A DNA stretch of 64,000 nucleotides from a virus (IMGVR_UViG_3300025073_000001), one strand, 5' to 3'. Shown: positions 2,060-30,130, counted from the first letter of the stretch. Made by a program: numbers and translations. Notes: generated from the letters alone by a model not told the origin.

Positions 2060-3946
2060 TTAGATATCAATAGCGCGAATATTTAAATCACGTCTAGGAT
2101 ATTTTACTTCCCAGATTGAAGGGTCCATCGGCGGATAGACAATCCCCCCTCGAGTTGCTGTTTTGATGTCATAGACATTTCCGCTGTAACCACTTGACTG
2201 ATCTATCAAATTAATAAATTCTATGTTATGGATTGATTGAACGCCTTCGACTCTATCTAATACTGAAGTTAAATTTGAAATAATTAAAGGTTCATTTATT
2301 TGACGTTTATCATTATCCATTAACTCAATGAGTTTATTCAATACGCGAAGTAAAACTTCATTTGAATTTTCATTTGGGCGAGTTACCACTTCAACGTTCA
2401 TTCCTATATTGATAATCCACGGATCCTTAATTGAAATCGCGTCCGTCATCATGCGATAATTGCGAAGGTGAGTTCTCAAGTTCTCCTTAATCGCTTCGTT
2501 ACAAACTACAAAATTTTTATTTACGTCGTAACTTAAACAGTAAAGATTAATTGAAAACGGATTAGGAATTCTGTCTTCCGACCAATGAGTCATCTGAGTG
2601 TCTTGAACAGCATAAGCCTTGCATACAGAACCATATTTCGGCGGAAGAGTAAAACACCTAAGTATCAAATCTTCCCTCGTCACCGCTCTATTCTGTGCGG
2701 CAAAGTTTGCCATCGCTTCTTCCCTAATTATTTCCAACGGTTTTCGGTTCTGACCACCAAATGCAGGGAATGGATTATTAATTGACAGTGAATCTTTTAT
2801 CGTTTGAAGTACGGTTGGATCAGTTGTATCACCAGGATCAACAATGGTTGAAGCAACGATTGCTGTAATTGTGTTTGAATTAACGTTTTCTCTCAATCCG
2901 GTTGCAACTGCATATTGAACAGTCAAGACAGTATTTTGTGGTGCTGAACCATAAGTCTTTGAATAGAGAAAGTTTTGTGGATCAATTGAAACATCGGCTG
3001 CTCTCTCAAAATAATTCAATCCTAAACCAACGTTCATTGGATTTGGAAGTATTTCTTCATCTGCTTCACTACTCATTCCACCACCAAATTGAATCTCTAA
3101 GAAATCATCTTTTCTCAATCTTGTGACAAATCTTCGTTCAGTTTGCTTATAGGATAAAATATAAGGGACTGATGATCTGTATTGACTCAGATGAGGATCA
3201 TTGTAAGGTAAGTTTCTAATTGATTGTTGAACCGTATCTTGTGCTAAGTACGGAACTTCATACCAAATATTATTGTCTGAATCAGTTACTTTAACAATTT
3301 CTGTAACATTCGGATCGTTTATCACGACCTTATCATATTGTTTTGGATCAGTGAACGAATACGTCGCTGTTTTTAATTCACCTGAAACTGCTTTGACTTT
3401 CTTTTTGAGTAAGAAATATTCAACTACGCCTGAACCGTCAACGCTATACGTTGTCACGACAGTTGGATCATAACTCGATGAGAATCTGAAATCAACTGCA
3501 TCAACTGTTCTGAATTTAATAGCATCAGTATCAGTGGTTGCGACTTGCATATTAGGTTCAAGATATAAACCATAACGAAAGTCTGGACGAGTGTCTTGAC
3601 CTTGACCAATGGAAGGGATTAACTGAAAAACTTCAAGTTCAACAGATGCTGGAGTTATTGTCTTTGCTTTGTAGCCTAATGATTGTGCAAGATTAAAAAG
3701 ATTCTTTTTTTCTTCAACGAGGTACAAAAGGCTTTCTTGAAGTTGAATATCTGTGTGAAATGACAACACGTCAGAAACAAAAGCAATCGATTCAAGCAAT
3801 GCCCCTTGTGGACTGGCTTCTGAAAAGTCATTTAATTGTTGGGGGAAGTACGTTTTTATAAAATTAATAAGTGCAATGCGGGATTCCGCAAAATCTTTAT
3901 TAACATATTTTATTTCTTTGCGCGATCTATCATTATATGCTGACAT
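2060..3946 (-). CDS. baseplate wedge protein, gp6-like (Baseplate_J family)
   Basis: 628 aa; N-terminal region (NKDFAESRIALINFIKTYFPQ...ASPQGALLESIAFVSDVLSFHTD) resembles T4 gp6/Baseplate_J; sits next to gp25-like gene as in T4-like cyanophages. Confidence 0.55.
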   Translation of the reverse strand: MSAYNDRSRKEIKYVNKDFAESRIALINFIKTYFPQQLNDFSEASPQGALLESIAFVSDVLSFHTDIQLQESLLYLVEEKKNLFNLAQSLGYKAKTITPASVELEVFQLIPSIGQGQDTRPDFRYGLYLEPNMQVATTDTDAIKFRTVDAVDFRFSSSYDPTVVTTYSVDGSGVVEYFLLKKKVKAVSGELKTATYSFTDPKQYDKVVINDPNVTEIVKVTDSDNNIWYEVPYLAQDTVQQSIRNLPYNDPHLSQYRSSVPYILSYKQTERRFVTRLRKDDFLEIQFGGGMSSEADEEILPNPMNVGLGLNYFERAADVSIDPQNFLYSKTYGSAPQNTVLTVQYAVATGLRENVNSNTITAIVASTIVDPGDTTDPTVLQTIKDSLSINNPFPAFGGQNRKPLEIIREEAMANFAAQNRAVTREDLILRCFTLPPKYGSVCKAYAVQDTQMTHWSEDRIPNPFSINLYCLSYDVNKNFVVCNEAIKENLRTHLRNYRMMTDAISIKDPWIINIGMNVEVVTRPNENSNEVLLRVLNKLIELMDNDKRQINEPLIISNLTSVLDRVEGVQSIHNIEFINLIDQSSGYSGNVYDIKTATRGGIVYPPMDPSIWEVKYPRRDLNIRAIDI

Positions 3947-4967
3947 ATTTTATTTTGGCCTCAAAATATTCTTCTTTTGAAATACGCTTATATTTTTCCT
4001 CTTTAACATATCTATCAATAATTTTAGCGGAAACTCCTAAAAATTTTGATAATTCAGAAATTGAAGAATAAACTTCTCGTGTTATTAAATTCATTATTGG
4101 TGTTGATTTTGGACAAGTCATTCCAAATGCATAATTACCACGATGCTTTCTAGTAATTTTAACCTCAGATTTCAATTGTTCAATTTCAACAAGGATTCCA
4201 TCAAATAATAACCATTTAAATTGGCTTTTGGATAAATTTAAATCCTTGACTGCGTCTGATTTGCAATTATAAATAATTCCGGATCGAGTATCATGAATTT
4301 TTTTAATTCTAGAAATTTCACCATTATAAAGTTCATGAGATTCTTTACTTTTTTTAGAAAGTTTTTCTTTAGTTTCTATAGATAAATTTTTCTTTGTTCC
4401 GAAAAATGAATTATTTTCTCCAGACCTCTTTTTGCCTCCAAAGGAAATTGCCCGTCGGGCTTCTAATGTATGAGTCTTACCAAAAAATGGATTTTTCTCT
4501 CCTTGTTGACGTTCACTGATTTCTTTTCGTTCCTTTTCTGTCTTAATTCTACCAAATGTATGATGATTTCTACCAACCATCAATGTTTTTAATTCATCCC
4601 GTTCAACTTTCCAAAATCCTTCAAAAAATTGTTTATAATCTGCCCCATGTTTTAATTTTAAAAATTTGACATGATGTTTGATTATCAAATTTGCTCCTGC
4701 AAGATTTTTTGAATAACCGGAAGTTCCAGAATCAAAACAATTTGCTAATTTTCTATGAGCACGATAATGATCTTCGATTGATAGTGGAATTAAATTATAT
4801 TCTGAATTTGAGCCTTCCATACATCTTGGTAAAATATGATGTCTATGAGTTGCTAAATTTCCATAGTTCTTTTGACTACACTCAATTAGAAAATCTTTAT
4901 ACGGTTTTAATTTTTCCAATTCATAACCTTGTTCAACAAATTCATTCAGTAAGTTTTCTCTGTTCAT
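3933..4967 (-). mobile_element. HNH homing endonuclease with NUMOD3-like repeats
   Basis: HRHHILPRCMEGSNSEYNLIPLSIEDHYRAH HNH motif; NPFFGKTHTLEARRA / NNSFFGTKKNLS repeats; overlaps gp6 start by 14 nt. Confidence 0.65.
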
Positions 4968-5112
4968 TTAAATTCCTTATAGTTTTTAATAGGAGTTTTG
5001 AAACAAAGTCATTTGCCTTCAGTGAATTTTCCTTGCAATATTTCATCACCTCATTGTGAGATTCGATTGAAACTTGGAAGGTTTTAACTTTGTCTTTTTG
5101 CTCCTGTTTCAT
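4942..5112 (-). CDS. small protein (57 aa) upstream partner of HNH gene; paralog of 7969..8139
   Basis: Translated by hand: MKQEQKDKVKTFQVSIESHNEVMKYCKENSLKANDFVSKLL...; homologous small ORF precedes the second HNH gene. Confidence 0.4.
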   Translation of the reverse strand: MKQEQKDKVKTFQVSIESHNEVMKYCKENSLKANDFVSKLLLKTIRNLNEQRKLTE

Positions 5113-6715: not shown

Positions 6716-7074
6716 TTTGGTAATCTGAACATTAATTCTGAAATGGTGAAATCTTTATTCCTTCCCTTGTTCAAGACAAAATCAAACTTTTTATAAAAGT
6801 CAATTAGCCTTGATTGCGAAGTTGTTCCTTGATAGTCATCTTTTACTGCCGGAGTCAATGTAATTATCTTTTGATTCCTATCTGCGTAATCGCATAATTC
6901 TTCCATCACCTTTGAACCAATTCCTTTTCCACGATCTTCTTTATTGACAATTATTGTGTCTAACTTGATTTTATCCTTGAATTCTGAAACGAAGAAAGAT
7001 TTCAGGTTATATTTTGATTCAATTGATTTTGACCAAGATTCAATATTTTCATTTAATAAAGTTCTAAGTTTCAT
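6712..7074 (-). CDS. GNAT family acetyltransferase-like protein
   Basis: RGKGIGSKVMEELCDYADRNQKIITL resembles GNAT motif A (R-x-x-G-x-G/A). Confidence 0.45.
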   Translation of the reverse strand: MKLRTLLNENIESWSKSIESKYNLKSFFVSEFKDKIKLDTIIVNKEDRGKGIGSKVMEELCDYADRNQKIITLTPAVKDDYQGTTSQSRLIDFYKKFDFVLNKGRNKDFTISELMFRLPK

Positions 7075-8000
7075 TCTTTATTTGCTCGACGTTTATTCCA
7101 AGATGATTTATTTTCTACAACTTCAAAGATTCCAATGTCAACCATTTCTTTAAACACTCCAAACAAAAGTTTTAATTGTTTCATTGCATCCGTTTGTGAA
7201 TTATAAATAATTCCAGTTCTAGTATCTTTTATGATAATCCTGTTACTTAAATGTTCTGGTGGTCTTTTCCGTGTTGCACATTTTTTACATTTTGGATTCC
7301 TTTCACAAAGTTTTTTTAAATCTGCCTGAGTTTCTTTCCTTGAATAGAACATTTTAACACCACAATCTGGACAAAATCTAAATAAATTTTTGTGCATCCC
7401 ATCAACAACTTCGTCACATCTAAAAATTCCTTCTGGTAACACGATTTCAGGTTTCCGTTTAGATCTTGCTTCTCTAATAATTTCTTTAGTTTCTTCAGAA
7501 TGTTTTTTACCATAAAACGAATTTAATTCACCAATCCGAGTTCCTTTTCTAACATCTGACATCTGCTTACATCTCTCTGGCGTAAATTTATCACCAAATT
7601 GGGCATGATTTTCACCTTTATTCAATTCGCAAACTTCCCTATGAGCAATTTCCCAAAATCCTTCCCAATGTTCCGAAATATCTTCTCCGTATCTCTTCTT
7701 CAAATGCTGTTTGACATATCCAACAATCAATTTAGCACTTCCATAATTTTTTCCTCTGAGTTTATTTCCTTTTGGAAAACATTCTGCTAAAATTAAATGG
7801 GCTTTGTAATGATCTTGGTAATTCAAAATTATTAAATTACTTTCATCATCTGTTCCACCCATAAACTTTTTTGAGTAAATATGATGTTTTTGGGTTCCTT
7901 GACCTGAATAATCCTTTTCTAAACATTCAAGTAAAAAATTGTTGTAATTGGTTAAATCATGACCTTCATAATCAGGTAGTAAGTTTTTGTTCTTGCTCAA
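7071..8000 (-). mobile_element. HNH homing endonuclease with NUMOD3-like repeats and C-terminal zinc ribbon
   Basis: QKHHIYSKKFMGGTDDESNLIILNYQDHYKAH; NHAQFGDKFTPE / NSFYGKKHSEETKE; CPDCG...CKKCATRK; paralog of 3933..4967. Confidence 0.65.
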
Positions 8001-8203: not shown

Positions 8204-9238
8204 TTATGGTTGTTTGAATTTGTTAAAGTCAGATGCTTGTAATTGGGTAAAATTTGCTGCCGAAGTTGCCGGACCTGAAGGGCCCGCAGGCGTGGCATAC
8301 TGACTTTGGCCGGTCGCTAATTTCACATCTTCTCCCAACCACTTTTTCAAAAAGTCCATCAGTTCATCCAAGTCAACTTTATATTTCTCAGATTGAAATA
8401 GGACTTTCTTCCCTGTCAATATCGCTTTTTCCTTTCCGATTAATAATAACATATCCTTGTTCGCATTCAGTACAACTCTATTTGAATTAATTGCTATTTG
8501 AGATTTCCCATCGAATTGTCCCAATTTCTTTGCGTCTGCATTTTTATCGAACCCTGCTTTAAAGTTCTTTAACTTTTGATTAGAAGTTAGAACCAAAGTT
8601 GATTCGTCTTTTTCAATGTCTTCAATCGTATATTTATTCGATGCTCCGCCTCCTGTTGGTTTTGCAACTCTCCAAATTGAAATTGGGTCACCATTGTTAC
8701 TGCCTTCCCACGAGGGCTTCTTCGAATATATTGACAAATCTCCTTTTATTGTTGAAGAAAATCTAAGGCTCGCTCCAAATCTTCCATTTATTATATCATC
8801 ACCTTCGAAGGGCTGAATTGGTTCTGTTTTTTTCGGAGGATCTGGAAACGTATATCCCGCTTCTTCCTTATCCGATTTTCGTTCTCCTGGGTTTCCACTT
8901 GGCGGTAAAGCACGTCGTTTCCACAATCTTGGAAATTTATGAAGTACGAGATCATCGGTTGCATTCAGTGCAGAAAAATACATGAATCCACTTCCTTTAA
9001 CCTTAGAAGTTGACCAATCATTTGTTGGAGAAATTATAACAGTGACAATTTCTCCAATCAAAGGGATTCGTGAATTCCATAGAGCAGGCCGACAAAAAAC
9101 AGTTCTCACTTGCCCTAAATTGCTTTCATGTGAACCAATTCTAACCTCTATGCTGCCGAGTGGGAGTAAATTTCCTTCAGGATCCTTCTGATCAGGCTTA
9201 AATGCATATTTTGTTTCCACAACTTCTGCTATAAACAC
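8204..9238 (-). CDS. baseplate hub / central spike gp5-like protein (OB-fold N-domain, no lysozyme domain)
   Basis: 344 aa; N-terminus MFIAEV...IGEIVTV...QPFEGDDIINGRFGASLRFS resembles gp5/VgrG N-terminal domain. Confidence 0.4.
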   Translation of the reverse strand: MFIAEVVETKYAFKPDQKDPEGNLLPLGSIEVRIGSHESNLGQVRTVFCRPALWNSRIPLIGEIVTVIISPTNDWSTSKVKGSGFMYFSALNATDDLVLHKFPRLWKRRALPPSGNPGERKSDKEEAGYTFPDPPKKTEPIQPFEGDDIINGRFGASLRFSSTIKGDLSIYSKKPSWEGSNNGDPISIWRVAKPTGGGASNKYTIEDIEKDESTLVLTSNQKLKNFKAGFDKNADAKKLGQFDGKSQIAINSNRVVLNANKDMLLLIGKEKAILTGKKVLFQSEKYKVDLDELMDFLKKWLGEDVKLATGQSQYATPAGPSGPATSAANFTQLQASDFNKFKQP

Positions 9239-10236
9239 AAGTTATCTCCTTCAACAAAGTACTGCCATTCTGAAAATCTATCAGATTTAGAATTTATTCT
9301 TTTATGAACCTTACCAACATTTATACCATGTTGGCGACCTGCCTCAGCAAGACTCTCATAAATAACTCCTTCAATTATACATTTTATCCGACTTGGTTTC
9401 GTATTTTCTACATATGGAATATCATTGACAAATATCCAATCCTTAAAAATTAAATTGGATGATTTTATTCTATAATTCACGGTATTACAAGATAAGTTCA
9501 AATGTCTTCCAGCCTCAGAAGCACTAAAATAAAAAATACCAAATATTACACATGGGTTATTTCTTGCTGCGTTTTCGCGCAACTTTTTTATTTCAGATTC
9601 AGTTTTTCCTCTACCAAAACCATTTCCCTTCTGAGCATCACTCATCCTTTGTCTTGATTCAATTGAACGTTTTTTACCAAATCCTGGGTTTCTTTCTCCC
9701 AAATTTATTTCTCGTAAATGATTTCGTTGCTCAATTGTTAATTTCATTCCTATATGTGCTATAGAAATTTTCTGTTTACTTTCTTCTGAATGCTTTCTTC
9801 CTTTAAAAGGTGGGTTGAGTCGTTTTTCTTCACGTTGCTTTTGGATAGTTTCTTCTGAATGTTTTTTCCCAGTGTTAGATATTTTTATTTTTAATCGAGT
9901 TTCTAATGATTGAATATATCCATTTTCTCCACCAGTTCTAATATTATAACATTGCGAATCTTTAATCAATTCATCAGTGACAATCATCTGTTCATGCCAA
10001 CTTGCTTCTAATCTGGTTGGGTAATGATTTATTACTTCTTTTTTAAAAGCCTCTTTTCCATATAAACGAATAGCCTCTTTTATGGCTTTTCCAGAACCAA
10101 GATAAGAATCTTTATTTGGGTGAACATTCGTTGATCGAATACCATAATAATATCGACCATTTAACAAATTAACCGTCTTATAGAAATAATTGAATAACTT
10201 TTCTTCTTTAACTTTCAATTGGTTTTCTCCTAACAA
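9229..10236 (-). mobile_element. GIY-YIG homing endonuclease (Seg/I-TevI-like) with NUMOD3 repeats
   Basis: FYFYKTVNLLNGRYYYGIRS...YLGSG GIY-YIG core; NTGKKHSEETIQK / FKGRKHSEESKQKIS repeats. Confidence 0.65.
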
Positions 10237-11174: not shown

Positions 11175-11969
11175 TTATTCTCCATTTTGATAATCTGCGA
11201 ACATTTGTTCAATATAAGTATCATCGTCCTGAATTTCTTCTGGAAAATACAGAACTCTGTGCCAATACTTTGTTCCATTGACTTTAAAATCCATGTACAT
11301 TTCTCTGCAAATCGGCCTTAAAACGTTTACAACATCCGTTATTGATTGGGTTTTAACGTTGACTTGTTCTCGGATCATTATGTACAAGGCTTTCTTATTA
11401 AAGATATCAATTGAATGACTGTTTTCAAATAAGTTGAATATTGCGTCCAAAATCTGCAAATCTTTCTTCGCAAAAGGAACGACTTTTCCGTTCTTGAAGA
11501 AGAAAAAATACTCAAGATGAGACATTCCGAATTCTGCAAACTTCTTGCAAAAATCCCTCATCTCTTCGTGATATTCTTCATTGTAAGTTTCATTGTCTAA
11601 GTTTCTATGCTGGTCAATTGATTCAACTTCGCACCTGCCATAAGTATCTTCTCCAACCTTTCTCATATTGGCCCAACACCAATTTATCGCTATTCTATTG
11701 AAGTAAGAAAAACCTTTTAGTCCACGACCAATGTCAAATTTATCTAACCTTTCAACTAAGTGAACGACACACTCATGTTTTGAATCGTGGTAATTGTTTA
11801 TTCCATGATTGTGATGTTTCTTGTTATGAATAACGTTTTCTGCTAACTTATCTAATGCTGGATAAATTACCTTTGAAAACAATTTTTCTTTCTCAATGTT
11901 TGACTCAGACTTGACATATTGATCTATCGCTTCATCAACTTCTTTTCCAAAATAAGGTTTTTTTCTCAT
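11175..11969 (-). CDS. hypothetical protein (weak, unverified resemblance to T4 gp55-type late sigma factor)
   Basis: 264 aa; segment GFSYFNRIAINWCWANMRK loosely resembles gp55 region; not sufficient for assignment. Confidence 0.35.
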   Translation of the reverse strand: MRKKPYFGKEVDEAIDQYVKSESNIEKEKLFSKVIYPALDKLAENVIHNKKHHNHGINNYHDSKHECVVHLVERLDKFDIGRGLKGFSYFNRIAINWCWANMRKVGEDTYGRCEVESIDQHRNLDNETYNEEYHEEMRDFCKKFAEFGMSHLEYFFFFKNGKVVPFAKKDLQILDAIFNLFENSHSIDIFNKKALYIMIREQVNVKTQSITDVVNVLRPICREMYMDFKVNGTKYWHRVLYFPEEIQDDDTYIEQMFADYQNGE

Positions 11970-11990
11970 GTATATTTTTCCTAACTGAAC

Positions 11991-12230
11991 TTATTCATGT
12001 TCTGGTAATGGCATATCTGCAATTGATCTAGGTTCAATTCCCATATAACTCTCTTCATCATCTTCGTCTGGATGAATCCAATCAACGCAAATATTTTCTT
12101 CCGCAATTTCTAAGCATTTTCTTGCATAGAACTCAGCATATTATTTCATAGCATCTTTCAATCCTTCATAGCCTTTTATAAATACATGAGGATCAACGTG
12201 TTCTTGAATTAATTCATATATTTTATTCAT
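11991..12230 (-). pseudogene. LPEHE-family small protein with in-frame TAA (stop at 12141..12143)
   Basis: Hand translation: MNKIYELIQEHVDPHVFIKGYEGLKDAMK*YAEFYARKCLEIAEENICVDW...MPLPEHE*; homologous to four intact paralogs; stop replaces E/K codon before conserved YAE(I/F)YA. Confidence 0.5.
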
Positions 12231-12447
12231 GTTCTGGTAATTCTGTTTCTAAGATTAGTTTTCTCAATTCTTCAACTGAACATTTACTCCAATGTCCCAT
12301 TTTCTCATATAAATTTTCACAGTGTTGCTTGGCATAAATTTCCGCGTATTTCTGCATCAATTTTTTGACTTGAAATTTGTAAACGTCAATTTCATGTAGC
12401 GATAAAGTTCCAAGAACTTGATTGATTACTTCGTCAGTTTTATTCAT
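12223..12447 (-). CDS. LPEHE-family small protein (paralog 2)
   Basis: shares MxK..E.I....YAEIYAKxCLE...LPEHE with 12440..12724, 13086..13340, 19977..20198. Confidence 0.5.
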   Translation of the reverse strand: MNKTDEVINQVLGTLSLHEIDVYKFQVKKLMQKYAEIYAKQHCENLYEKMGHWSKCSVEELRKLILETELPEHE

Positions 12448-12724
12448 GATCTGGTAAATTTATATTTGTAATCGTTCTTTCATCAATAAAGCATTCATGA
12501 AGGATATTATGTTCTGAATAATTTAAACTCGTCAATCGATCAATTCCAGTTCCGTAATTAATTTGAATTCTTGCATTTTCAGCAGCAATTTCAAGACATT
12601 TTCTAGCGTAAATTTCGGCATAAATAATCATACAATCTTTAATAGGTCTATCTTTAAATGTTCCTATTCCAGGTGCAGATTCATTTTTAAAACGGGTTTG
12701 AATTATTTCTTCAATCTTTGTCAT
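12440..12724 (-). CDS. LPEHE-family small protein (paralog 3)
   Basis: MTKIEEII...IIYAEIYARKCLEIAAENA...NLPDHE. Confidence 0.5.
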   Translation of the reverse strand: MTKIEEIIQTRFKNESAPGIGTFKDRPIKDCMIIYAEIYARKCLEIAAENARIQINYGTGIDRLTSLNYSEHNILHECFIDERTITNINLPDHE

Positions 12725-13073
12725 TGTTCACTTCGTTTTCTTCGTTATTATTTTGTTCTTCTTTTAATTCTTTTAACTTTTGAACGACGTTTCCAATGCA
12801 AGTTTTAATTACTTTGAAAGCGAATCCAACTTCATCATCACTTGAAAAAGTTCCACGTTTATCAATCCTACTGATTTCACTATCAGCGTTCATAAACAGT
12901 TGCAGGAAAGCAATGTAATATTTTTCCGCATCCTCATAAATCTTTGCTTCTCGTTTTTCAACTTCAGCAATGAAATCTTCCAATTGTTTAGATTGGTGAT
13001 ATAAGTTGTAAACAAAGAATCCTTGAACAATGATGATTAGGACTGCTAATATTAATAAATAGACGTATATCAT
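12711..13073 (-). CDS. membrane-anchored hypothetical protein
   Basis: N-terminal hydrophobic helix MIYVYLLILAVLIIIVQGFFVY. Confidence 0.4.
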   Translation of the reverse strand: MIYVYLLILAVLIIIVQGFFVYNLYHQSKQLEDFIAEVEKREAKIYEDAEKYYIAFLQLFMNADSEISRIDKRGTFSSDDEVGFAFKVIKTCIGNVVQKLKELKEEQNNNEENEVNNDKD

Positions 13074-13085
13074 TTTAGATTTCTT

Positions 13086-13340
13086 TTATTCATGTTCTGG
13101 TAAATCTATATTTAAAATTGAACCTTTATCAATTGACCATTTGTATTCTAAATCATCAATTCGATTATAAAATCCTTCTTCAAACATTTCAACATTTTCT
13201 GATGCAATTTCTAAACATCTCTTAGCATAAATCTCTGCATATTCTTTCATCAAATCAGTTATAATCTTTTCAACATATCCAAGATTTTCTAATTGATCTG
13301 GAAAGAATTTTTGAGAAATCAATTCTTCTATCTTACTCAT
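13086..13340 (-). CDS. LPEHE-family small protein (paralog 4)
   Basis: MSKIEELIS...LMKEYAEIYAKRCLEIASEN...DLPEHE. Confidence 0.5.
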   Translation of the reverse strand: MSKIEELISQKFFPDQLENLGYVEKIITDLMKEYAEIYAKRCLEIASENVEMFEEGFYNRIDDLEYKWSIDKGSILNIDLPEHE

Positions 13341-14122
13341 TTTTCACCGAACATTTTATCAAAAGCGTCCAATCCAAATACTGGTTTTTCTTCCTTTGCT
13401 GTGATTGGTTTAACTTCTGGTTTAACATTTACATTCGTATTTAAATTGAACTTTTCTGAAGCAGTTGCCCAACGTTCAAATTCAAACCTGAATGCCATGA
13501 TGTCTGCGTGATGAAGAATATAAGGCATTGAATTCCTCAACTTGCTGTCTAAATCAAATCCAGCCAAATACGCTTTATTCGTCTCTTCATACATTCCGTC
13601 AGTGCATCGTATTCCAATCATTTCATTTAATGAGTAGGGAACTTGATAGTGATTTAAGAGGAAGAAACCTTTATCTGTAATTGGAATTTTAGGAACATTG
13701 GGATTCGATTTATAAATCTTACCTTGGTTTTTAACGTGCCAAGTCGAATCATTTACTACATAGTGCTCTTTTCCAATCCCAGGCAAACCAAGTTTCCCCA
13801 AATCGTGATGCATTGCTGCAAATTGCAATTCTTCCAAGGTAAAGTTATCAACTTTCATTCCCATCTTCATCCAAAGTTCCCATTGAACAATTGCAAATTC
13901 ATAGACTCGCAGGACGTGATCAATATATCCACCAGGGATAGCATTGTGAAAGTAATCATATCCAGATGCAGGAGCCATTTGAACCCGCATATCATCTGAA
14001 TCCAAATCATCGTACATTGCATTCAATGCATCTTTCCTCGTTGGAAATTGTTCGTTGATAATCGTTCTGAACGTTTGGTAATTTCTCGCAATTTGTTTTG
14101 CTGTTAAGGTAAATTCTGCCAT
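13337..14122 (-). CDS. HD-domain phosphohydrolase-like protein
   Basis: H...HHDLGK...HHAD pattern consistent with HD superfamily metal-dependent phosphohydrolase. Confidence 0.45.
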   Translation of the reverse strand: MAEFTLTAKQIARNYQTFRTIINEQFPTRKDALNAMYDDLDSDDMRVQMAPASGYDYFHNAIPGGYIDHVLRVYEFAIVQWELWMKMGMKVDNFTLEELQFAAMHHDLGKLGLPGIGKEHYVVNDSTWHVKNQGKIYKSNPNVPKIPITDKGFFLLNHYQVPYSLNEMIGIRCTDGMYEETNKAYLAGFDLDSKLRNSMPYILHHADIMAFRFEFERWATASEKFNLNTNVNVKPEVKPITAKEEKPVFGLDAFDKMFGEK

Positions 14123-14412: not shown

Positions 14413-15594
14413 TTATAAAATATTTATTTTATATGGATTACACTCTAATCCACTATTGACTATCTGACTTACGGCAGAATCACCAATTACTTTTCTTGCT
14501 ATTCCAATTGCTCCATTAATATCTGCATTAATCAACCTTCCAGATGAACTTTGAAATAAGCCTCTTTTCTTTCTTTTTCCTAAATAACTTTCTTGCTTTT
14601 GTAATGGTTCACAGGCTAAATTATCAATTTTTGAAGTATAAGATTCTTCAGTTAAAATAACATCAATACCGACCAATTTTGCTTTATATTGGATTTTCTG
14701 AATTAATTTAGCGTGTGGAATTTGAACAAAATTTTGATTAGTCTTGTGACCAAGGTTTATTCCGTTTTTCCATCCATCATTCTTACCAATAAAAATAGAT
14801 CCGATGTCATTTTCAATGCAGTGATTAATAATATATCTCGAAATTTTATGATTTTTATCTTCTATCCAAAAATTTCGATAATTATTTAATCTGGTAAGTC
14901 TTTTAGAAATTCCTTTAACACCGACATAAGACTTCAATTTAGCATTGTTTTTATTAAACCATTGATTGAAACTTTTAATTATCTTTCCATTAATAATGAA
15001 AGGTTTTCGTCCTACATTATTTATAGTTGAAACATAATTATTCAATCCAAGATCAAGTGATAAGAAGTTTTCTTTGTTTAATTCATGATTAATTTCCTCC
15101 TTTTCATATACAACTTCAACGACATAACAAGTTGCTTGTGGAATGATTCTTACTTGTTTAAATTTAGTTACATTTGTTTTTATAGGTTTTATAATATTAT
15201 TTACAAAATGAATATGACCTCTTTTTAATCTTGATGTGGTAGTTGTGAATGTAATCAAATTCTGTTTATCACCAACTTTAAATTTTGGTAACTTTGGTCT
15301 TCCTTTAAATTTACCAGGATTTTTTTCATATTCCTTCTTTGCTTTCCTCCATGATTTAAAATTTTGAAAAACTTGTTTTATAACTTGTTGAGAAACATTT
15401 GAAGGTAGTGATCTAAAATCTTCTTGATTAAATTCTGCACATAATTTAGAACATTCAAATTCAGAAAAATATTCCTGATTACCAAAGATTGCTTGTCTAT
15501 AATGATAGGTTACAAAGTTGTAAAGTAACCCAGATTTATGACAAATTTCTTCGAACCTATTGTCTAAAATTATATGTCTTTCTGTTAAAATCAT
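14413..15594 (-). mobile_element. tnpB: IS605-family TnpB-like protein (OrfB), solo; zinc finger absent, RuvC-II Glu apparently replaced
   Basis: 393 aa; N-terminal WED/REC-like region; RuvC-I LSLDLGLNNYVSTI; HK-S-YII helix; YTSKID; RuvC-III LINADINGAIGIARK; no CxxC pairs; position aligned with ISDra2 E278 reads IFIGKNDGW. Confidence 0.6.
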
Positions 15595-18946: not shown

Positions 18947-19984
18947 TTAGTTGTAACCGCCAATATGCACGGTCAACAAGTAAATATCCTCCAATCTTGA
19001 ATTATCAATTTCATATCTCTTTCCATCGAGCAATCTATGAACAACTTCTGGAATTGGATAGTCTAAATGACCCGATTCCCCGTAACAATTGCCCTGTAAG
19101 ACGAATAAAATCGCTGTTTTTGTATTAGATAATGAATGATTTAAAGTTTTGTTAAAATAATCCCATTTATTGAATCCGTGATCATCATTCAAAGTTCCGA
19201 TGCAAATTGTGTAATCAGTTTGAATTGAAACGTCGTTGAAATCATTGCAGATTAATTTGATTCCTGGATATTTCTGCTCTCCAACTCGACATAGATTCGG
19301 ATTAGATTCAATTCCAAAGTAGTCAATTGCACTTGGTTTTGAAAATTCCCATTCTGGCGGATTAATTAATCTTCCATAGAAATCTCCTCTACCCGCACCT
19401 AAATCTTTAACTGAAAAATTATGTTTTGGTAATTTTGCATTGACCCAATCATAAATCTCTTCCTGAAATTCTTCATCTGGATAACCAACAATTTCAGCAT
19501 CGCTCATGAGGTATAATGGAAGTTTAATTTCAGCAATCTCTTTATCTATTTCTTCTGAAACGGCTTTGGTTAAATCATCTTCAAATTCAAGTAATGATTT
19601 TTGAAGTTCTGAACCTTGAAATGTTTCATCATTGAATAATTGATCAGCATAATCTTCGTGATCAACATAATGTTCATCATCTTCAAGATGTTTGACATAA
19701 TCATCCATTCCAAGTTCTGCCAATTCTCTTTGTTCTTCAATTACATCTTCTGGAATTAAAAAAGAAGGTGCTTCGTCAATTGCTGCATTTGGATAATTCC
19801 TATATTCCAATTCAGATATTTCATCTAAAGTCAACGGAACACCAGTAATTCCTCCATCATCAATTATTGCGTCAATTTCCTGCTTTGTAAAGTTCTGCTC
19901 AATGAAAGAATCTATTTCATTATTTAGTTCTTCCTTCTTTTTCAAGATGTTTGGTGGAAGTAAAAGGTCTTCTAATTTAGTCAT
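18947..19984 (-). CDS. acidic protein with possible SAM-methyltransferase-like C-terminal domain
   Basis: VKDLGAGRGDFYGRL resembles MTase motif I (GxGxG); very acidic N-terminal half. Confidence 0.35.
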   Translation of the reverse strand: MTKLEDLLLPPNILKKKEELNNEIDSFIEQNFTKQEIDAIIDDGGITGVPLTLDEISELEYRNYPNAAIDEAPSFLIPEDVIEEQRELAELGMDDYVKHLEDDEHYVDHEDYADQLFNDETFQGSELQKSLLEFEDDLTKAVSEEIDKEIAEIKLPLYLMSDAEIVGYPDEEFQEEIYDWVNAKLPKHNFSVKDLGAGRGDFYGRLINPPEWEFSKPSAIDYFGIESNPNLCRVGEQKYPGIKLICNDFNDVSIQTDYTICIGTLNDDHGFNKWDYFNKTLNHSLSNTKTAILFVLQGNCYGESGHLDYPIPEVVHRLLDGKRYEIDNSRLEDIYLLTVHIGGYN

Positions 19985-20198
19985 CGTGTTTGGGCAATTT
20001 AATATTTATAATCGAATCTTTATCAACAATCAATGAATAACCGTTTCCAGGAACACGTTGTTTCATTTCTGCTTTTTCAGCAGCAATTTCTAAGCATCGT
20101 TGAGCGTAGAATTCGGCGTATTCTTTTATCATTTCTTGAATTACAAGATAAGGATGATTATGATCTATTGCTGATAGTATTTCTTCAATCTTTGTCAT
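19977..20198 (-). CDS. LPEHE-family small protein (dispersed paralog 5, ends LPKHDD)
   Basis: MTKIEEILS...MIKEYAEFYAQRCLEIAAEKA...NIKLPKHDD. Confidence 0.5.
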   Translation of the reverse strand: MTKIEEILSAIDHNHPYLVIQEMIKEYAEFYAQRCLEIAAEKAEMKQRVPGNGYSLIVDKDSIINIKLPKHDD

Positions 20199-25289: not shown

Positions 25290-25310
25290 ATTTAAAAATT
25301 TTATTTTAGA

Positions 25311-25382
25311 AGCCTCTGTTGGGATCGAACCAATGCTTTCCCGCGATCAAAGCGCGGTGTAATACCAATATACGAAGAGGCC
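25311..25382 (-). tRNA. tRNA-Gln (anticodon UUG)
   Basis: hand fold: acceptor GGCCTCT/AGAGGCT (G-U at 1-72), AC arm CCGCG-CTTTGAT-CGCGG, T-loop TTCGATC. Confidence 0.55.
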
Positions 25383-25446
25383 AAAATTAAATATTGATTT
25401 AGGTTCAATATCAAAGACCTACTTATTTTCTAACTAGAATAAAATG

Positions 25447-25520
25447 TCGGGAAAGTCAGATTCGAACTGACACTAACCACGGCTCCAGACCGCGTAACTT
25501 CACCAATAGATCGTTTCCCG
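25447..25520 (-). tRNA. tRNA, anticodon UGG (Pro) with unusual C33
   Basis: acceptor CGGGAAA/TTTCCCG, T-arm GTCAG-TTCGAAT-CTGAC, AC arm CGCGG-TCTGGAG-CCGTG. Confidence 0.45.
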
Positions 25521-25546
25521 AAGAATTGGATTAAAAATTAATTTGA

Positions 25547-25616
25547 GGTTCCGATTGGACTTAAACCAATATAAATGCTTTTGCAGAGCATCACCTTATC
25601 AATCGGACACGGAACC
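25547..25616 (-). tRNA. tRNA-like, probably Cys (GCA) on minus strand; palindromic, strand ambiguous
   Basis: acceptor GGTTCCG/CGGAACC; AC arm ATGCT-CTGCAAA-AGCAT; T-arm ATTGG-TTTAAGT-CCAAT; weak D-arm lacking GG. Confidence 0.35.
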
Positions 25617-25857
25617 ATTTTGGATTAAAAAGAAACGAACAAAACTCTGATGAAACTATGAATAAGTATCTAACCCCAAAGAATTTTCAGTCTCGACTAA
25701 CAGAAAATTTCGTTTCTTATAAAATTAAAATTAATTAGTCAGGATTCGATACCTGAACGATTCATCTCACTGGTTTTGACCGAACCTTTGCAGAATCAAC
25801 TTTAGGTCTGTTGCGTCTATCTTTCGCCACTAACTAATTTTTTCTGAAATTTATTTT

Positions 25858-25891
25858 ACAAAGATACCTGATTAATTTCAATCTACCAAAT
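25858..25891 (-). promoter_or_regulatory. sigma-A-like promoter (TTTGGTAGATTG...GTATCTTTG)
   Basis: TTTG-N20-TAnnTTTG on minus strand. Confidence 0.35.
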
Positions 25892-25908
25892 TTATTTTAA
25901 ATCAAATT

Positions 25909-26178
25909 TCATATTGAGCATTGTTTATATTCATTGGCCGTTTCGCGAATTAAATGCGCCATATTTTCATTAGGCTTTTCAGCAACCCATTTATACCGAC
26001 CATTTAACTTTTCAACGATACCGATTCCTCGAAGAACCGTAGCGACTGACCAATCAATATTCCAAGCAGAACAATGTTTTTGAAGATTGGTAACTTTATT
26101 TTTTTGGCATTTTGTTCTGATCGTTTTCAAAAAATTGGTTAATTCTGGAATTGTTGCGTTTGAAGATCTCGATCTCAT
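25909..26178 (-). CDS. hypothetical protein
   Basis: 89-aa ORF within tRNA island. Confidence 0.35.
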   Translation of the reverse strand: MRSRSSNATIPELTNFLKTIRTKCQKNKVTNLQKHCSAWNIDWSVATVLRGIGIVEKLNGRYKWVAEKPNENMAHLIRETANEYKQCSI

Positions 26179-26203
26179 AATTTTGAAAATTTATTTTAGT
26201 TTG

Positions 26204-26277
26204 AGCCGGGTGTTGGATTTGAACCAACGATCAATTGTTTGTAATACAATCTGCGTAGACCGCTTGCATAACCCGGC
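26204..26277 (-). tRNA. tRNA-Val (anticodon UAC)
   Basis: acceptor GCCGGGT/ACCCGGC, T-arm GTTGG-TTCAAAT-CCAAC, AC arm ATTGT-ATTACAA-ACAAT. Confidence 0.55.
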
Positions 26278-26491
26278 TTAAAAAATCAGAACATCATCTT
26301 TTTTCGATTTACAAATTCGTTGATTTAAAGTTGCTGTTGATGTTCTTTTGGCTCAGGGAGGGCAAAAATAAATTTTAATCAATAACCAAGCCCTTTCCCC
26401 TGAAAGTTGTGATGTGCTGTTCGGTTATTTATTCAGATTTGCATTTTTTAGTTTACAAGTGTTCTACCAACTGAACTATAAAAGGGATTCA

Positions 26492-26566
26492 CTCCTTTTA
26501 GCGAGACTCGAACTCCGACCTTTGCCGTGACAGGGCAACATACCTACCAATTATACGACACGTTCG
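26492..26566 (-). tRNA. tRNA-Asp (anticodon GUC); acceptor/T-stem imperfect, ends approximate
   Basis: perfect AC arm TTGCC-CTGTCAC-GGCAA, D-loop TAATTGGTAGG, T-loop TTCGAGT; T-stem only 3 bp. Confidence 0.4.
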
Positions 26567-26890
26567 ATCAAATATAAATAAACATTTATGTCGGCTTCGT
26601 TCTTTTCAATATTTATTTTATTTACCTCTATGCTACCTTCACGATTAGTGGCTGCACATTGAATGAATACAATCATCTCCAAGTTGACAAGACTGGCGAG
26701 GTTAAATAAATATTATTCGAACAAACTTGGTAACGTTCAAGTTAGACGGTTAAAAAGTTAAATCAATTTTATCGCAATTGCGATAAGGTTTCATAATCAA
26801 GTTCCTTTTAAATCCCCTTGTGGGTTAATTATACGCAAAGATAAACCCTTTATTTCAGACTACCAAGTAAATCTAAAGATCTTTTTCAAA

Positions 26891-27148
26891 TTATTTTCTC
26901 AGATCCTTCCAATCTTCTAAATATTTTTCATATGAACGAATGCAAAAATTTAATTCATTTGTAAATCGTTCTGGGTTCCAATTCTGCAAATTAATACTTT
27001 GACTTCCTTCCCACACCGAACTCCAATAATTGAATCCAAACCAAGATTTTTTCTTAACTTGAAGCCAAATATCTGGATATAAACTAAGAAGCGTGAATCG
27101 TTCAGTTATTAATCTGTAATTGGGATGATCGTTTGATTTAAAAGTCAT
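26891..27148 (-). CDS. hypothetical protein
   Basis: 85-aa ORF. Confidence 0.35.
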   Translation of the reverse strand: MTFKSNDHPNYRLITERFTLLSLYPDIWLQVKKKSWFGFNYWSSVWEGSQSINLQNWNPERFTNELNFCIRSYEKYLEDWKDLRK

Positions 27149-27162
27149 TTTATTTTATTTTT

Positions 27163-27244
27163 GCACGAAGGTAGAGATTCGAACTCTAAACTGCTCTTAC
27201 GAATTACCGGGTTGGAACCGGCCAGTCACGCCAATGAGCCTCCG
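27163..27244 (-). tRNA. tRNA, 82 nt; candidate anticodon CCA; isotype uncertain
   Basis: acceptor GCGGAGG/CCTTCGT (two G-U), canonical T-arm TAGAG-TTCGAAT-CTCTA, stem-loop GCCGG-TTCCAAC-CCGGT; D-arm unclear. Confidence 0.35.
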
Positions 27245-27285
27245 CGTTTGGAACCATCCTGCTACGCTTTCAAGTTCCTTTTACT

Positions 27286-27642
27286 TTATTTCACTGCAAC
27301 CCATTCTGTCTTTTCGACAATTTTGGATTTGACTTGACTCATGTGATTGTATTCTGAACCATGATGACTTGCATACCATCCGTCAAAACTGATGAAAATT
27401 CCGTGATCGATGAAGTGATAAACTTTCCAATATTGATCACCTTGACCTTCTCCTCCAAATTCATCTACCATTTCAAATTTACCTAATTTGGCAAATTCTT
27501 CTTTGAATTCACCTTCTTCATCAATGTCATCGGCTGATTCTGGAACGGCTTCATGCATCCATCTTTCTGGATCACAATCGTTTTCTGAGAAAAGGTCTGA
27601 ATTGATGATTGCACTGATTTCTTCAAATGTAAGTTTATTCAT
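27286..27642 (-). CDS. paralog family A (triplicated 110-120 aa family, conserved C-terminal half)
   Basis: ...YWKVYHFIDHGIFISFDGWYASHHGSEY...VEKTEW; similar to 27903..28208 and 28201..28533. Confidence 0.45.
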   Translation of the reverse strand: MNKLTFEEISAIINSDLFSENDCDPERWMHEAVPESADDIDEEGEFKEEFAKLGKFEMVDEFGGEGQGDQYWKVYHFIDHGIFISFDGWYASHHGSEYNHMSQVKSKIVEKTEWVAVK

Positions 27643-27645
27643 ATT

Positions 27646-27906
27646 TTATAATTGTTTGAAATAATGACTAATTGCAGGACGTCCGGTTCTTATCACACTT
27701 CCGACACCAATATCCATTTTATTATGTTCCCGATAAACAGATGAAATATGTGGAGTTAAATCTTCGTAAACTTCAAACAAAACGTTGGTTGAATCTTCAC
27801 CTAAATATTTCACGATTTGTTCTATTTTTATTCCCTGGAATTCTCCTTGAGCAATTTCCATTTCATATCGATACAACGATCCAATGACTAATTCTGAAAA
27901 GTTCAT
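27646..27906 (-). CDS. hypothetical protein
   Basis: 86-aa ORF. Confidence 0.35.
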   Translation of the reverse strand: MNFSELVIGSLYRYEMEIAQGEFQGIKIEQIVKYLGEDSTNVLFEVYEDLTPHISSVYREHNKMDIGVGSVIRTGRPAISHYFKQL

Positions 27907-28208
27907 TCGTAAATTGTGACTAATTTTTCTATTGGGTTAACGAATTGATATTTAACGTATTCTGTTCCGTGAAATGACCGATACCAGCCAATAAATTTGA
28001 CGTAAAGATCTAAATCTTTGAAGAAATAGACAGATTCAAGTTCGGCTTGACCGTCAAAATCATATTCATTCTTGACATCTTTACATTCAAAGTTTCCGAG
28101 AACGCAACTAACATCTTCCTTAATATCTCCTCCAACTAAGTCTTGAAGTGGAAATTCATCTTGAAATTTATCAAAACTTTCAGCAAATTTTTCCTGAGTG
28201 TTATTCAT
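27903..28208 (-). CDS. paralog family B (start at internal Met MNNTQEKF)
   Basis: ...VYFFKDLDLYVKFIGWYRSFHGTEYVKYQFVNPIEKLVTIYE. Confidence 0.4.
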   Translation of the reverse strand: MNNTQEKFAESFDKFQDEFPLQDLVGGDIKEDVSCVLGNFECKDVKNEYDFDGQAELESVYFFKDLDLYVKFIGWYRSFHGTEYVKYQFVNPIEKLVTIYE

Positions 28209-28533
28209 AAACCGTGATTGTTTTTTCAACTGGGTGAACTTGAGATAATTCTTCAAACTGACATCCATCGTAACTTTCTAACCAGCCAGTAAATCTGATA
28301 AAAACATCATGTTCGATGAAATGATAAACTCTGAAAACTTTGACAGATGAATAATAACTGTCAGATTCAAATCCACCGGATTCAACTTTTTTAATTGTTC
28401 CAAGTGTCAAGGTATAATCTTCGGTTGAATCGACTAAATTTTCATCATCAACATCTAATCCAATGATGAAATCATCTCCCCATTCTTTTTGCTTGATTAA
28501 ATCAGAAATTTGATTGAAGGTAAGTCTTTCCAT
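28201..28533 (-). CDS. paralog family C
   Basis: ...VFRVYHFIEHDVFIRFTGWLESYDGCQFEELSQVHPVEKTITVYE. Confidence 0.45.
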   Translation of the reverse strand: MERLTFNQISDLIKQKEWGDDFIIGLDVDDENLVDSTEDYTLTLGTIKKVESGGFESDSYYSSVKVFRVYHFIEHDVFIRFTGWLESYDGCQFEELSQVHPVEKTITVYE

Positions 28534-29329
28534 AATCTTCGTCGTAATTTAGAAAAAAGTTTAAATTGTTAATTATGTAAATGATCATCCATAAAGGAGC
28601 AAGTCTATCGACCAATCCCTTTAGGCATTTTTGATAAGCAATTTTCTTGTTCTTGATTATTCCAGTTAAAATGAACCTTTCCAACGCTAATGTCTGTGCT
28701 TCTTCAATCACAACCCTTTGACGAATATGTTCTGAAACCGAATTAAACTTTTCTGGATCAACCCAAACAGTTGTCTGGGCAGGTTCTTGGAGAAATTTAA
28801 AAGCAGGAACGTCATAATATTTAACCGCTTCATGCAATTCATCGTGAACGTTTTCGCGACTTACGGCATCATCAAAGAATTCAGATGATTCTTTTGTAAA
28901 ATCTGCTCTCCATTTCTCTCCAAACTTCTCAGTCCAAGAATCATGCAATTCATAGAATAAAGGTTCAATAATTTTACAACCTTCCTCAGCCATTAAAAAT
29001 AAATCAAAGAAAGTTTTATCCTTGTGAACTTTATCAAATGGAACGTGAGATGCTTTCAAGGTGAAATAAATGTTTCTAAGAAATGATTGAGTTGGAAAAC
29101 CTAGTTCACTTCTACGTATTGGACCTTCTATTATTTTCCACAAAATTGGAATCCAATGCAATTCAGTCTTTGAACCATATAATTCCTTGAAATATTTTAC
29201 ATCTTCTGGAGTTGGTTCGTTTTCAACCAAGACATCATAATCAGTATTATCTTTCAAACGTTTTTGAATCTTGCAATTATCAGGGAATAATTTCACGAAT
29301 AACCTGGATCCAATTAGAAAATGTTGCAT
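28502..29329 (-). CDS. possible Pol-beta-superfamily nucleotidyltransferase-like protein
   Basis: IGSRLFVKLFPDNCKIQKRLKDNTDYDVLV fits hG[GS]...DxD NTase signature; weak. Confidence 0.3.
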   Translation of the reverse strand: MQHFLIGSRLFVKLFPDNCKIQKRLKDNTDYDVLVENEPTPEDVKYFKELYGSKTELHWIPILWKIIEGPIRRSELGFPTQSFLRNIYFTLKASHVPFDKVHKDKTFFDLFLMAEEGCKIIEPLFYELHDSWTEKFGEKWRADFTKESSEFFDDAVSRENVHDELHEAVKYYDVPAFKFLQEPAQTTVWVDPEKFNSVSEHIRQRVVIEEAQTLALERFILTGIIKNKKIAYQKCLKGLVDRLAPLWMIIYIINNLNFFLNYDEDYGKTYLQSNF

Positions 29330-29346
29330 AAATTAGATTTAAATTG

Positions 29347-29431
29347 ATCCGGATAAGCGATTCAAACGCTTGATGGGCAAAATGCCGATAGATTACAAAT
29401 CTATTTCCTTCGATCACTCGGACAATCCGGA
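29347..29431 (-). tRNA. class-II-shaped tRNA (85 nt, long variable arm) with anticodon loop TTTGTAA (UGU)
   Basis: acceptor TCCGGAT/ATCCGGA, U8-G9, D 3-bp stem + 11-nt loop, AC arm ATAGA-TTTGTAA-TCTAT, variable arm GGCA-TTT-TGCC, T-arm AAGCG-TTTGAAT-CGCTT. Confidence 0.5.
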
Positions 29432-29440
29432 ATAAAATTG

Positions 29441-29514
29441 TAGCCCACATAGGATTCAAACCTACATCTTCAGAATCCGAAGTTCTGTGCCTTATTCAGT
29501 TAGACCAATGGGCC
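29441..29514 (-). tRNA. tRNA-Arg (anticodon UCG)
   Basis: acceptor GGCCCAT/GTGGGCT, AC arm CAGAA-CTTCGGA-TTCTG, T-arm GTAGG-TTTGAAT-CCTAT, D-loop without GG. Confidence 0.55.
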
Positions 29515-29538
29515 AAAATAAGATTAAAAATAATACTG

Positions 29539-29613
29539 CGCCTCCTGAAAGATTCGAACTTCCAACCCCAAAGTTAACAACTTTTCGCTCTATCCGGTTA
29601 TAGCTAAGGAGGC
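29539..29613 (-). tRNA. tRNA-Asn (anticodon GUU)
   Basis: acceptor GCCTCCT/AGGAGGC, AC loop TTGTTAA, T-arm GGAAG-TTCGAAT-CTTTC. Confidence 0.55.
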
Positions 29614-29712
29614 AATTTAAACTGTCTATTTCATTGGTTAATCTCCCGTTGACTCTCTGCGAAATAGACAATAATCGAACAGATAACATTTAGAGATTTT
29701 CCTTTACAATTG

Positions 29713-29786
29713 TACGGGATATCGGGATCGAACCGATTCTATTTCAGAGTGGAAATCTGATACACCACCATTTATGCGTATCCCGC
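29713..29786 (-). tRNA. tRNA-Gly (anticodon UCC)
   Basis: acceptor GCGGGAT/ATCCCGT, AC arm TCAGA-TTTCCAC-TCTGA, T-arm ATCGG-TTCGATC-CCGAT. Confidence 0.55.
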
Positions 29787-29793
29787 GATTATT

Positions 29794-30114: not shown

Positions 30115-30130
30115 AAATTACGTTGTTTTG

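Follow-up and report, generated by a model that had tools for sequence, protein, structure and literature searches.

In T4-type phages, ORFan genes are shuffled as modules within hyperplastic regions through PeSLs (PMC2839356, PMC4122927). A PeSL is an intergenic element in which a sigma-70-like early promoter is combined with a stem-loop terminator; its 3' end carries a Shine-Dalgarno sequence and a start codon (PMC2839356). The gp38 adhesins of T4-type phages consist of swappable modules around conserved linkers (PMC3157838).

We analyzed a 64,000-nucleotide window (the whole stretch of DNA studied here) of a viral contig, in which an array of small paralogous genes shares features with these systems. 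Its likeness to PeSL-mediated shuffling lies in non-essential small ORFans that are inserted, deleted, or replaced between the core genes of large lytic myoviruses, in recombination at short conserved gene-boundary sequences, and in close relatives that carry different cassettes. Exchange of ORFs at a conserved boundary motif was observed for copy 2 of the family and its counterpart in a related contig (L013), and in a comparison of empty and filled sites. However, what bounds a family cassette is an overlap of coding stop and start codons; intergenic DNA is absent, as are promoter and terminator signals, and the intergenic promoter and terminator that mark a PeSL were not found at the array. 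The adhesins resemble the family in that conserved segments flank hypervariable ones and recombination yields combinatorial variants. They are part of the virion and have an established role as determinants of host range, whereas the family proteins are small, acidic, and probably cytoplasmic, and have no sequence or fold similarity to adhesins.

The array also resembles an integron in its promoterless, single-ORF, co-oriented cassettes, with upstream-dependent expression and variable number and order. It differs in that the cassettes encode one protein family and sit in a lytic phage operon. No integrase was found among the annotated neighbors of the array, and no attC-sized site fits it, because its junctions are 8-nt overlaps. 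Classical morons have their own promoter and terminator. The family cassettes share with morons and ORFans the character of extra genes between conserved neighbors, missing from relatives and dispensable to the backbone, but they form links in the translational chain of the operon that receives them. The literature was also searched in general terms for arrays of this kind, with no relevant result. The explanation that we favor overall, with moderate confidence, is that these genes are mobile, translationally coupled single-gene cassettes of a phage-restricted family encoding a putative binding scaffold.

The original prediction proposed five small-protein genes, four in an array and one dispersed. 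Retranslation of the 64-kb window recovered five homologous small ORFs, each where it had been placed, and bore out the shared motifs MxKIEE.., ..YAExYAxxCLEIA.., and ..LPxH(E/D); the retranslated copies aligned as true paralogs of one family. One of the five (11991..12230) carries an in-frame TAA and, as discussed below, is regarded as a pseudogene. When a profile built from the five copies was searched against the six-frame translation of the window, the matches were exactly these copies (E 1e-23 to 3e-39), and the best non-family match had an E-value of ~1. Copy 1 was matched as two pieces, the short N-terminal one with E 8e-08. As only four proteins of the 229,053-bp parent contig appeared in the database search, we concluded that the genome holds four intact copies and one broken copy.

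All genes of the array region lie on the minus strand, as do all five family copies, the 345-aa gene, and the mini-ORFs described below. Three genes form a backbone, which in related contigs runs from the HD phosphohydrolase to the membrane-anchored protein, the 264-aa protein, and, further on, the baseplate genes. The first is an HD-type metal-dependent phosphohydrolase of 261 aa (13337..14122), assigned from PHROG 28876/5889 and synteny. The second encodes a membrane-anchored protein of 120 aa (12711..13073) with the motif RGxFxSDDEVGF and an N-terminal transmembrane helix; this hydrophobic helix could be read straight from MIYVYLLILAVLIIIVQGFFVY. The third encodes a 264-aa protein (11175..11969) conserved in cultured Flavobacterium phage immuto and Microcystis phage Mel-JY01. 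We defined slot A as the interval between the HD and membrane-protein genes, with the former as its left flank, and slot B as that between the membrane-protein and 264-aa genes, with the latter as its right flank.

Copy 4 (13086..13340, 84 aa) is the sole cassette in slot A; its start overlaps the HD stop (ATGA), and its 3' end is CCAGAACATGAATAA. Slot B begins with copy 3 (12440..12724, 94 aa), which overlaps the membrane-protein gene by 14 nt and has the 3' end CCAGATCATGAATAA. It is followed by copy 2 (12223..12447, 74 aa), which diverges most from the others and has a C-module that is helical (HCENLYEKMGHWSKC...); its start codon is the ATG within the CATGAATAA of copy 3. Copy 1 (11991..12230) comes next. 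Copy 5 (19977..20198, 73 aa) is dispersed and occupies a third site, slot C. Its 5' end overlaps the upstream 72-aa gene by 14 nt (ATGACAAAGATTGA), and its 3' end, CACGATGACTAA, contains the start ATG of a 345-aa gene (18947..19984). The N-terminus of this 345-aa protein, MTKLEDLL, mimics that of the family, to which the protein is otherwise dissimilar. Slot C has a positional equivalent in L022, where the order is Amidase_2, a 69-aa gene, a family member, a 273-aa gene, and a 110-aa gene.

Codon 30 of copy 1 is TAA (12141..12143), in the context 'MK*YAEFYARKCLEIA', at a position occupied by E, K, or I in the paralogs. The result is a 29-aa open ORF followed by 49 open orphan codons that retain all motifs (YAEFYARKCLEIA...LPEHE). 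The same TAA was present in a second, independent assembly (Logan SRR3989314), and exact-pattern searches of viral and genome contigs recovered no further strain of copy 1, whether TAA-bearing or not. Within the window, TAA is the commonest terminator (76 of the 114 genes) and also terminates family genes, and none of the 13 tRNAs found in the 64 kb is a suppressor. An extra Rfam tRNA (25546..25616) was considered as a suppressor and rejected, its anticodon being GCA, i.e. Cys. Because TAA is the main terminator and no suppressor was found among the 13 tRNAs, we read copy 1 as a recent pseudogene. It is highly improbable that copy 1 is alive and that its TAA is read through or recoded, by a suppressor tRNA or by programmed readthrough, to give a 79-aa protein. 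The open tail with every family motif and the recurrence of the TAA in two assemblies would fit such a protein, but a recent nonsense mutation would equally leave an open tail, no second case of an in-frame TAA was seen, and the terminator usage and tRNA set stand against it. None of the signs of TAA reassignment (TAA unused as a stop, multiple in-frame TAA codons, a suppressor tRNA) was found in the 64-kb window.

The membrane-anchored protein had been described as an ORF that interrupts the array. The ORF is real, but it is a conserved backbone gene and not an interruption. Relatives of this protein were confirmed 276 times in metagenomes, and homologs also occur in immuto and Mel-JY01, both of which have the same backbone without any family copy. 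Among 80 metagenomic loci with a homolog of the membrane protein, 79 had no family copy within 2.5 kb, and the sole family-bearing locus was the same contig as L016. Since the backbone occurs in relatives mostly without the family (1/80 with it), we regard the membrane ORF as backbone and the small genes as accessory inserts. The suggested comparison of copy number among related phages revealed that cassette number and position vary between relatives: slots A and B hold one and three cassettes (one of them dead) in the window, one and one in L013, one and none in L015, and none and one in L016.

The last codons of the membrane protein in the window, DKD*, come from the 5' end of the following cassette (ATGACAAAGATTGA), and an alignment of membrane proteins showed the ending (N/D)DKD* only where a slot-B cassette comes next. 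That a cassette completes the C-terminus of the membrane protein, and that copies in the lineage of the window flank and overlap its gene on both sides, could suggest that the small proteins and the membrane protein form a dedicated unit, for example for superinfection exclusion or lysis control, or as a toxin and its neutralizer. We consider this very unlikely, given the co-occurrence at only one of the 80 metagenomic loci (2.5 kb), the cultured relatives that have the membrane protein without the family, and the presence of the family in at least five other contexts without the membrane protein. These contexts include positions after a ResIII helicase, after Amidase_2/glucosaminidase clusters, and before YopX-like genes. 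Our searches found no conserved gene partner of the family.

At the stop/start junctions, the cassette end on the 5' side (ATGA..., or ATGACAAAGATTGA) provides the stop codon of the upstream gene; ATGACAAAGATTGA does so at slots B and C, and the 72-aa gene before copy 5 terminates like the slot-B membrane proteins. On the 3' side, an ATG lies within the cassette end (…CCAGAACATGAATAA, which encodes …PEHE*), and the gene that follows takes this ATG as its start codon. This junction reads ...CATGAATAA, or variants with ..TGA or ..TAG, and the identity of the downstream gene varies. The original prediction, which had noted CATGAATAA at gene junctions inside the array, was right about the array 3' ends, but its exclusion of the 13086 copy was mistaken, as copy 4 also ends in CATGAATAA. 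The motif occurs five times in the window, against 2.0 expected by chance, and four of the five occurrences are 3' ends of array copies. In the window the embedded ATG starts the next family copy, in L010 it starts YopX-like genes (twice), and in L009, L019, L022, L104, and L107 it starts unrelated genes. In these contigs the genes so started, including the two in L010, all begin MN…. As the embedded ATG serves any gene that follows, each insertion regenerates the same junction.

After copies 4 and 1, the embedded ATG opens only mini-ORFs, MNKRNLK* and MNKFS*, respectively. The former (13070..13093, 24 nt, 7 codons) starts at the ATG in the CATGAATAA of copy 4, and its TGA overlaps the ATG of the membrane-protein gene. 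An ORF of equal length, MNKRNKK*, lies behind a different cassette type in L013, and we infer that the mini-ORF may act as a translational relay. MNKFS* (11981..11998) is a relic start at the ATG in the CATGAATAA of copy 1; with it slot B ends on its 3' side, 11 nt ahead of the start of the 264-aa gene.

Overlaps at these sites are 4, 8, or 14 nt; the remaining gaps between the backbone flanks of slots A and B are at most 12 nt, with 21 nt after the last cassette. Overlaps of 8 nt and of 14 nt each occur at three of the 113 junctions in the window, and two of each are family junctions. Promoter-like sites were not above chance (29, compared with 47 expected), no terminator-like sites were present in 11900-13400, and promoter/terminator and Rfam scans revealed neither a promoter nor a regulatory RNA in the array. 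Upstream regions are rich in A (49%), and the frequency of Shine-Dalgarno-like motifs is only slightly above background (19% vs 13%). The overlaps imply that the cassette genes would be translated through termination-reinitiation coupling, which fits the A-rich starts and the few Shine-Dalgarno-like motifs.

A trace of movement is seen in copy 2, whose counterpart in L013 lies in slot A although copy 2 itself lies in slot B. The two are 94.1% identical at the nucleotide level; the identity begins exactly at ATGAATAAAAC, stops at CATGAATAAAA, and is bounded by ATGAATAAAA on both sides, with unrelated flanks. The pair showed a dS of 0.26 and a dN/dS of 0.09. In the backbone genes of the same two contigs, dS was 0.77, 1.0, 1.3, 2.0, or saturated. 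This contrast indicates that the copy 2 cassette was exchanged long after the backbones diverged, and the dN/dS of 0.09 indicates purifying selection on the protein that the cassette encodes.

The boundaries were also read from empty and filled sites. The empty slot A of L016 has the sequence GAAAAATGATATAC / GGAGAAAAATGATATAC, and there the HD stop overlaps the membrane-protein start. Filled sites have the form GAAAAATGA[cassette...CATGAATAAAAG(A/G)AAT..AAAATGA]TATAC. Comparison of the empty and filled sites revealed that AAAATGA repeats bracket the insert, the sharp boundaries being defined by one high-identity pair (the window and L013) and one empty site (L016). The difference at a slot represents an insertion or a deletion, the direction being unreadable from three genomes. 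As judged by genome comparison, these data show that cassettes move between slots and between phages.

We propose that cassettes would be inserted, exchanged, and lost by short-homology recombination at ATGA-centered junctions (AAAATGA / ATGAATAAA), probably during co-infection. The end of a cassette resembles its own start, and every insertion would recreate the landing site; arrays could grow for this reason. At least three GIY-YIG/NUMOD3 homing-endonuclease-like genes were found in the window, and such genes would promote double-strand-break repair. No recombinase was found linked to the cassettes. Constraint on the protein together with an AT-rich codon bias could by itself account for the identical 3' ends, and for this reason a dedicated recombination site is only putative.

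The original prediction took the array as a sign of serial duplication, which the divergence of the copies does not support. Pairwise protein identity between the window copies was 31-43%, and closer relatives were found in other phages for each of them (47-70% identity by BLASTP, and 96% for copy 2). Even in the DNA of the central helix, the most conserved part, identity between copies was 53-78%, and the longest exact DNA matches lay at the 3' ends (18-19 nt) and at the 5' ends (21 nt). In a recent tandem array, neighbors are mutually closest and highly identical in DNA; the window copies are neither. The best hits also suggest that the window copies would not group as a clade in a tree of the family.

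The variable parts of the protein point in the same direction. Across ~200 members, the two variable segments sorted into 29 and 38 types with more than one member each, and the types of one segment occur in free combination with those of the other. The N-type of copy 1 (HVDPHVFIKGY..) was found with six different C-types, its C-type was also found with the unrelated N-segment of P0006, and the five window copies have five different C-segment types. This pattern suggests that recombination inside the conserved core and at gene ends has shaped the family. A recent in situ tandem duplication, arising head-to-tail via ATGAATAA microhomology and followed by divergence in place, might be argued from the adjacency and co-orientation of the copies, the identical CATGAATAA junctions, the identity of the 18-19 nt 3' ends, and the fact that expansion of a family must involve duplication at some time. 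We consider it unlikely here, given the low protein identity and the DNA divergence of the most conserved helix, the closer relative of every copy in another phage, the five C-segment types in five copies, and a counterpart of copy 2 in the other slot of L013 with a dS three- to eight-fold below that of the backbone.

The family extends well beyond this genome. A profile search of 5.8 billion proteins returned 103 family clusters, and an exhaustive HMM search of 1.84 billion representatives returned 272 clusters (50% identity, E<=0.001). Nearly all members are stand-alone proteins of 62-120 aa from metagenomic phage contigs, with a median length of 81 aa and a median pI of 4.75. The 936-aa protein P0190 ('10 stretches') was considered as a fused array and dismissed as a false positive, being an unrelated low-complexity repeat protein. 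Among 185,579 bacterial and archaeal species genomes, none yielded a family relative, and no match was found in 50,697 cultured-phage records by megablast (11 kb) or tblastn (copy 4). We searched Pfam-A and PHROGs v4 with the five window proteins and 94 aligned members and found no recurrent family: the best E-values (0.002-0.003) were below curated cut-offs, and no family was matched by more than two members. PDB sequence and fold searches and BFVD gave no credible relative. The statement that no function can be assigned accordingly holds, Pfam, PHROGs, PDB sequence and fold searches, and BFVD all being negative. This is a new, previously unnamed, phage-restricted family of acidic proteins of ~80 residues.

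In the alignment of 94 sequences, Y34, A35, Y38, and H83 were invariant, and M1, K3, E36, A39, L43, L80, and P81 were at least 90% conserved. The LPxH tail had been singled out as the hallmark of these proteins, and the alignment supports this choice, with an invariant His and with Leu and Pro at least 90% conserved. The AF2 model of copy 4 (pLDDT 90) contained helices at 3-11, 20-49, and 72-76 and a beta-hairpin at 52-70, and that of copy 2 (pLDDT 84.6) contained helices at 3-12, 19-50, and 58-67. The two models have a common two-helix core and differ in the C-module.

These observations bear on the idea that the conserved ends are DNA or RNA signals for initiation or coupling, with ORFs that serve chiefly as spacers or leader cistrons and a protein product of little importance. 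It is true that the embedded ATG starts unrelated genes in many phages, that upstream regions are A-rich with Shine-Dalgarno-like motifs at the near-background level given above, and that a non-family gene begins with the family-like MTKLEDLL. Nevertheless, the idea appears quite unlikely: dN/dS was 0.09, a confident fold was predicted from covariation, conservation is strongest in the internal helix YAExYAxxCLEIA and not only at the ends, and the His is kept as CAC where there is no ATG (in L015, in L016, and in slot B of L013). The genes are under selection as proteins.

As to what these proteins do, we tentatively propose, with low confidence, that each is a small soluble binding scaffold, a putative, diversified accessory factor for host takeover or anti-defense. 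In the predicted architecture, the core would consist of the N-terminal helix, the long helix with YAExYAxxCLEIA, and the LPxH tail, and the exchangeable inserts, of which one copy has a beta-hairpin and another a helix, would recognize a variable host or phage target. A binding or inhibitor role fits because a conserved core carries exchangeable inserts, the copies are multiple and divergent, turnover is fast, and the family occurs only on lytic-phage contigs. That the searches yielded no sequence or fold relative and no conserved gene partner, and that charge spans -3 to -14, weighs against such a role. Y34, E36, Y38, and H83 could equally form a small-ligand- or metal-binding site or a catalytic site, and copy 2 also has an H-C...H...C motif.

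A bolder version, which we regard as unlikely, is that the family is a library of binders in which the start and stop codons of a conserved two-helix scaffold are a portable joint for recombination and translational coupling and the inserts hit variable host defense or takeover targets. If so, co-infecting phages could stack, swap, and discard cassettes with different recognition inserts without a promoter, terminator, or recombinase, and the family would represent a new class of anti-defense or host-modulating proteins as well as a new mode of cassette mobility.

In large environmental phages, most genes are small ORFans of obscure origin and turnover, and this locus provides a clean sequence-level example of the gain, movement, and loss of small genes. 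The principle is not new, as modular accessory-gene shuffling in T4-type phages is already established. Here, cassettes without regulatory DNA plug into stop/start overlaps and leave the translational chain of the operon intact. Exchanged variable segments are what one would expect where phage and host are in an arms race, so functional screens could reasonably include this family.

Charge varies among the copies, from -14 and -11 in copies 1 and 4 to between -3 and -4 in copies 2, 3, and 5. A DNA-mimic role was considered and set aside, strong charge being present in copies 1 and 4 only; because copies 2, 3, and 5 carry only -3 to -4, DNA mimicry is not a trait of the family. Separately, a distant member of the family, in L020/L021, has a Pfam Gad2 gene ~5 kb away, a weak hint of anti-defense.

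The copy 4 cassette, a single family gene slotted between conserved backbone genes, is followed in the window by a 7-codon mini-ORF (MNKRNLK and a stop codon; 13070..13093, minus strand) that spans the interval from the cassette stop to the membrane-protein start and overlaps its neighbor at each end. An equivalent mini-ORF (MNKRNKK and a stop codon; about 5040..5063) was present in L013, a metagenomic contig sharing the window backbone, and had the same length although the preceding cassette types differ. This mini-ORF may act as a translational relay, or it may merely be a relic.

The 345-aa gene that follows copy 5 (18947..19984, minus strand) starts within the stop region of that copy, and its N-terminus, MTKLEDLL, resembles the family N-terminus MTKIEEIL. 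This suggests that the 345-aa gene captured the 5′ end of a cassette. Its homolog in contig L022 starts with MNRLEDYL at a CATGAATAG junction. In a different phage group (contigs L010, L011, and L012), a YopX-like gene (…GNIYENPELL) follows a family gene via a CATGAATAG overlap. This pair is present twice (about 2142..4167 in L010 coordinates) with a spacing of 1.1 kb, and both genes have diverged between the pairs.

The C-module of copy 2 (12223..12447, minus strand) carries an H-C-x9-H-x3-C pattern (KQHCENLYEKMGHWSKC) at residues of about 41–56, which is also kept in the database family member P0067 and in the L013 copy. The pattern could be a small metal site specific to the copy 2 cassette type.

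Upstream of the array, the phage operon encloses a 393-aa TnpB/OrfB_IS605-type gene (14413..15594, minus strand), which matched Pfam OrfB_IS605 and Cas12f1-like_TNB and a PHROG transposase (1e-38). As L013 and L016, which share the window backbone, lack this gene at the equivalent position (flanked by the 75-aa gene and the HD phosphohydrolase gene), it is an insertion, and the site is another variable spot of the operon. Three free-standing homing-endonuclease-like genes of the GIY-YIG/NUMOD3 (I-TevI-like) type (9229..10236, 7071..8000, and 3933..4967, minus strand; PHROG homing endonuclease, 1.5e-49) lie no more than 10 kb from the array, scattered among genes for recombination and for the baseplate. 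The 264-aa backbone protein (11175..11969, minus strand) had no match in Pfam or PHROG and is conserved, at 32–33% identity, in Flavobacterium phage immuto and Microcystis phage Mel-JY01. In location and in some traits of its sequence, it may resemble the T4 late sigma factor gp55.

In contigs L020 and L021, a distant family member is followed, about 4–5 kb downstream, by a gene that matched Pfam Gad2 (anti-Gabija; 9637..10221 in L020 and 5156..5740 in L021) and lies inside a small-gene block. This weakly hints at an anti-defence neighborhood.

The window also carries a cluster of 13 tRNA genes (25309..34871, minus strand), 12 detected by ARAGORN and one, with anticodon GCA (Cys), by Rfam only (25546..25616); none of the 13 is a suppressor tRNA. 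All ORFs of at least 120 aa are on the minus strand, excluding shadow ORFs that overlap a longer minus-strand ORF. Across all window start regions, which are A-rich (49% A in −15..−1), Shine-Dalgarno-like motifs were barely enriched (19% versus a background of 13%). The start regions and strand bias would fit a host that initiates translation independently of SD sequences, for example a member of the Bacteroidota or the cyanobacteria.
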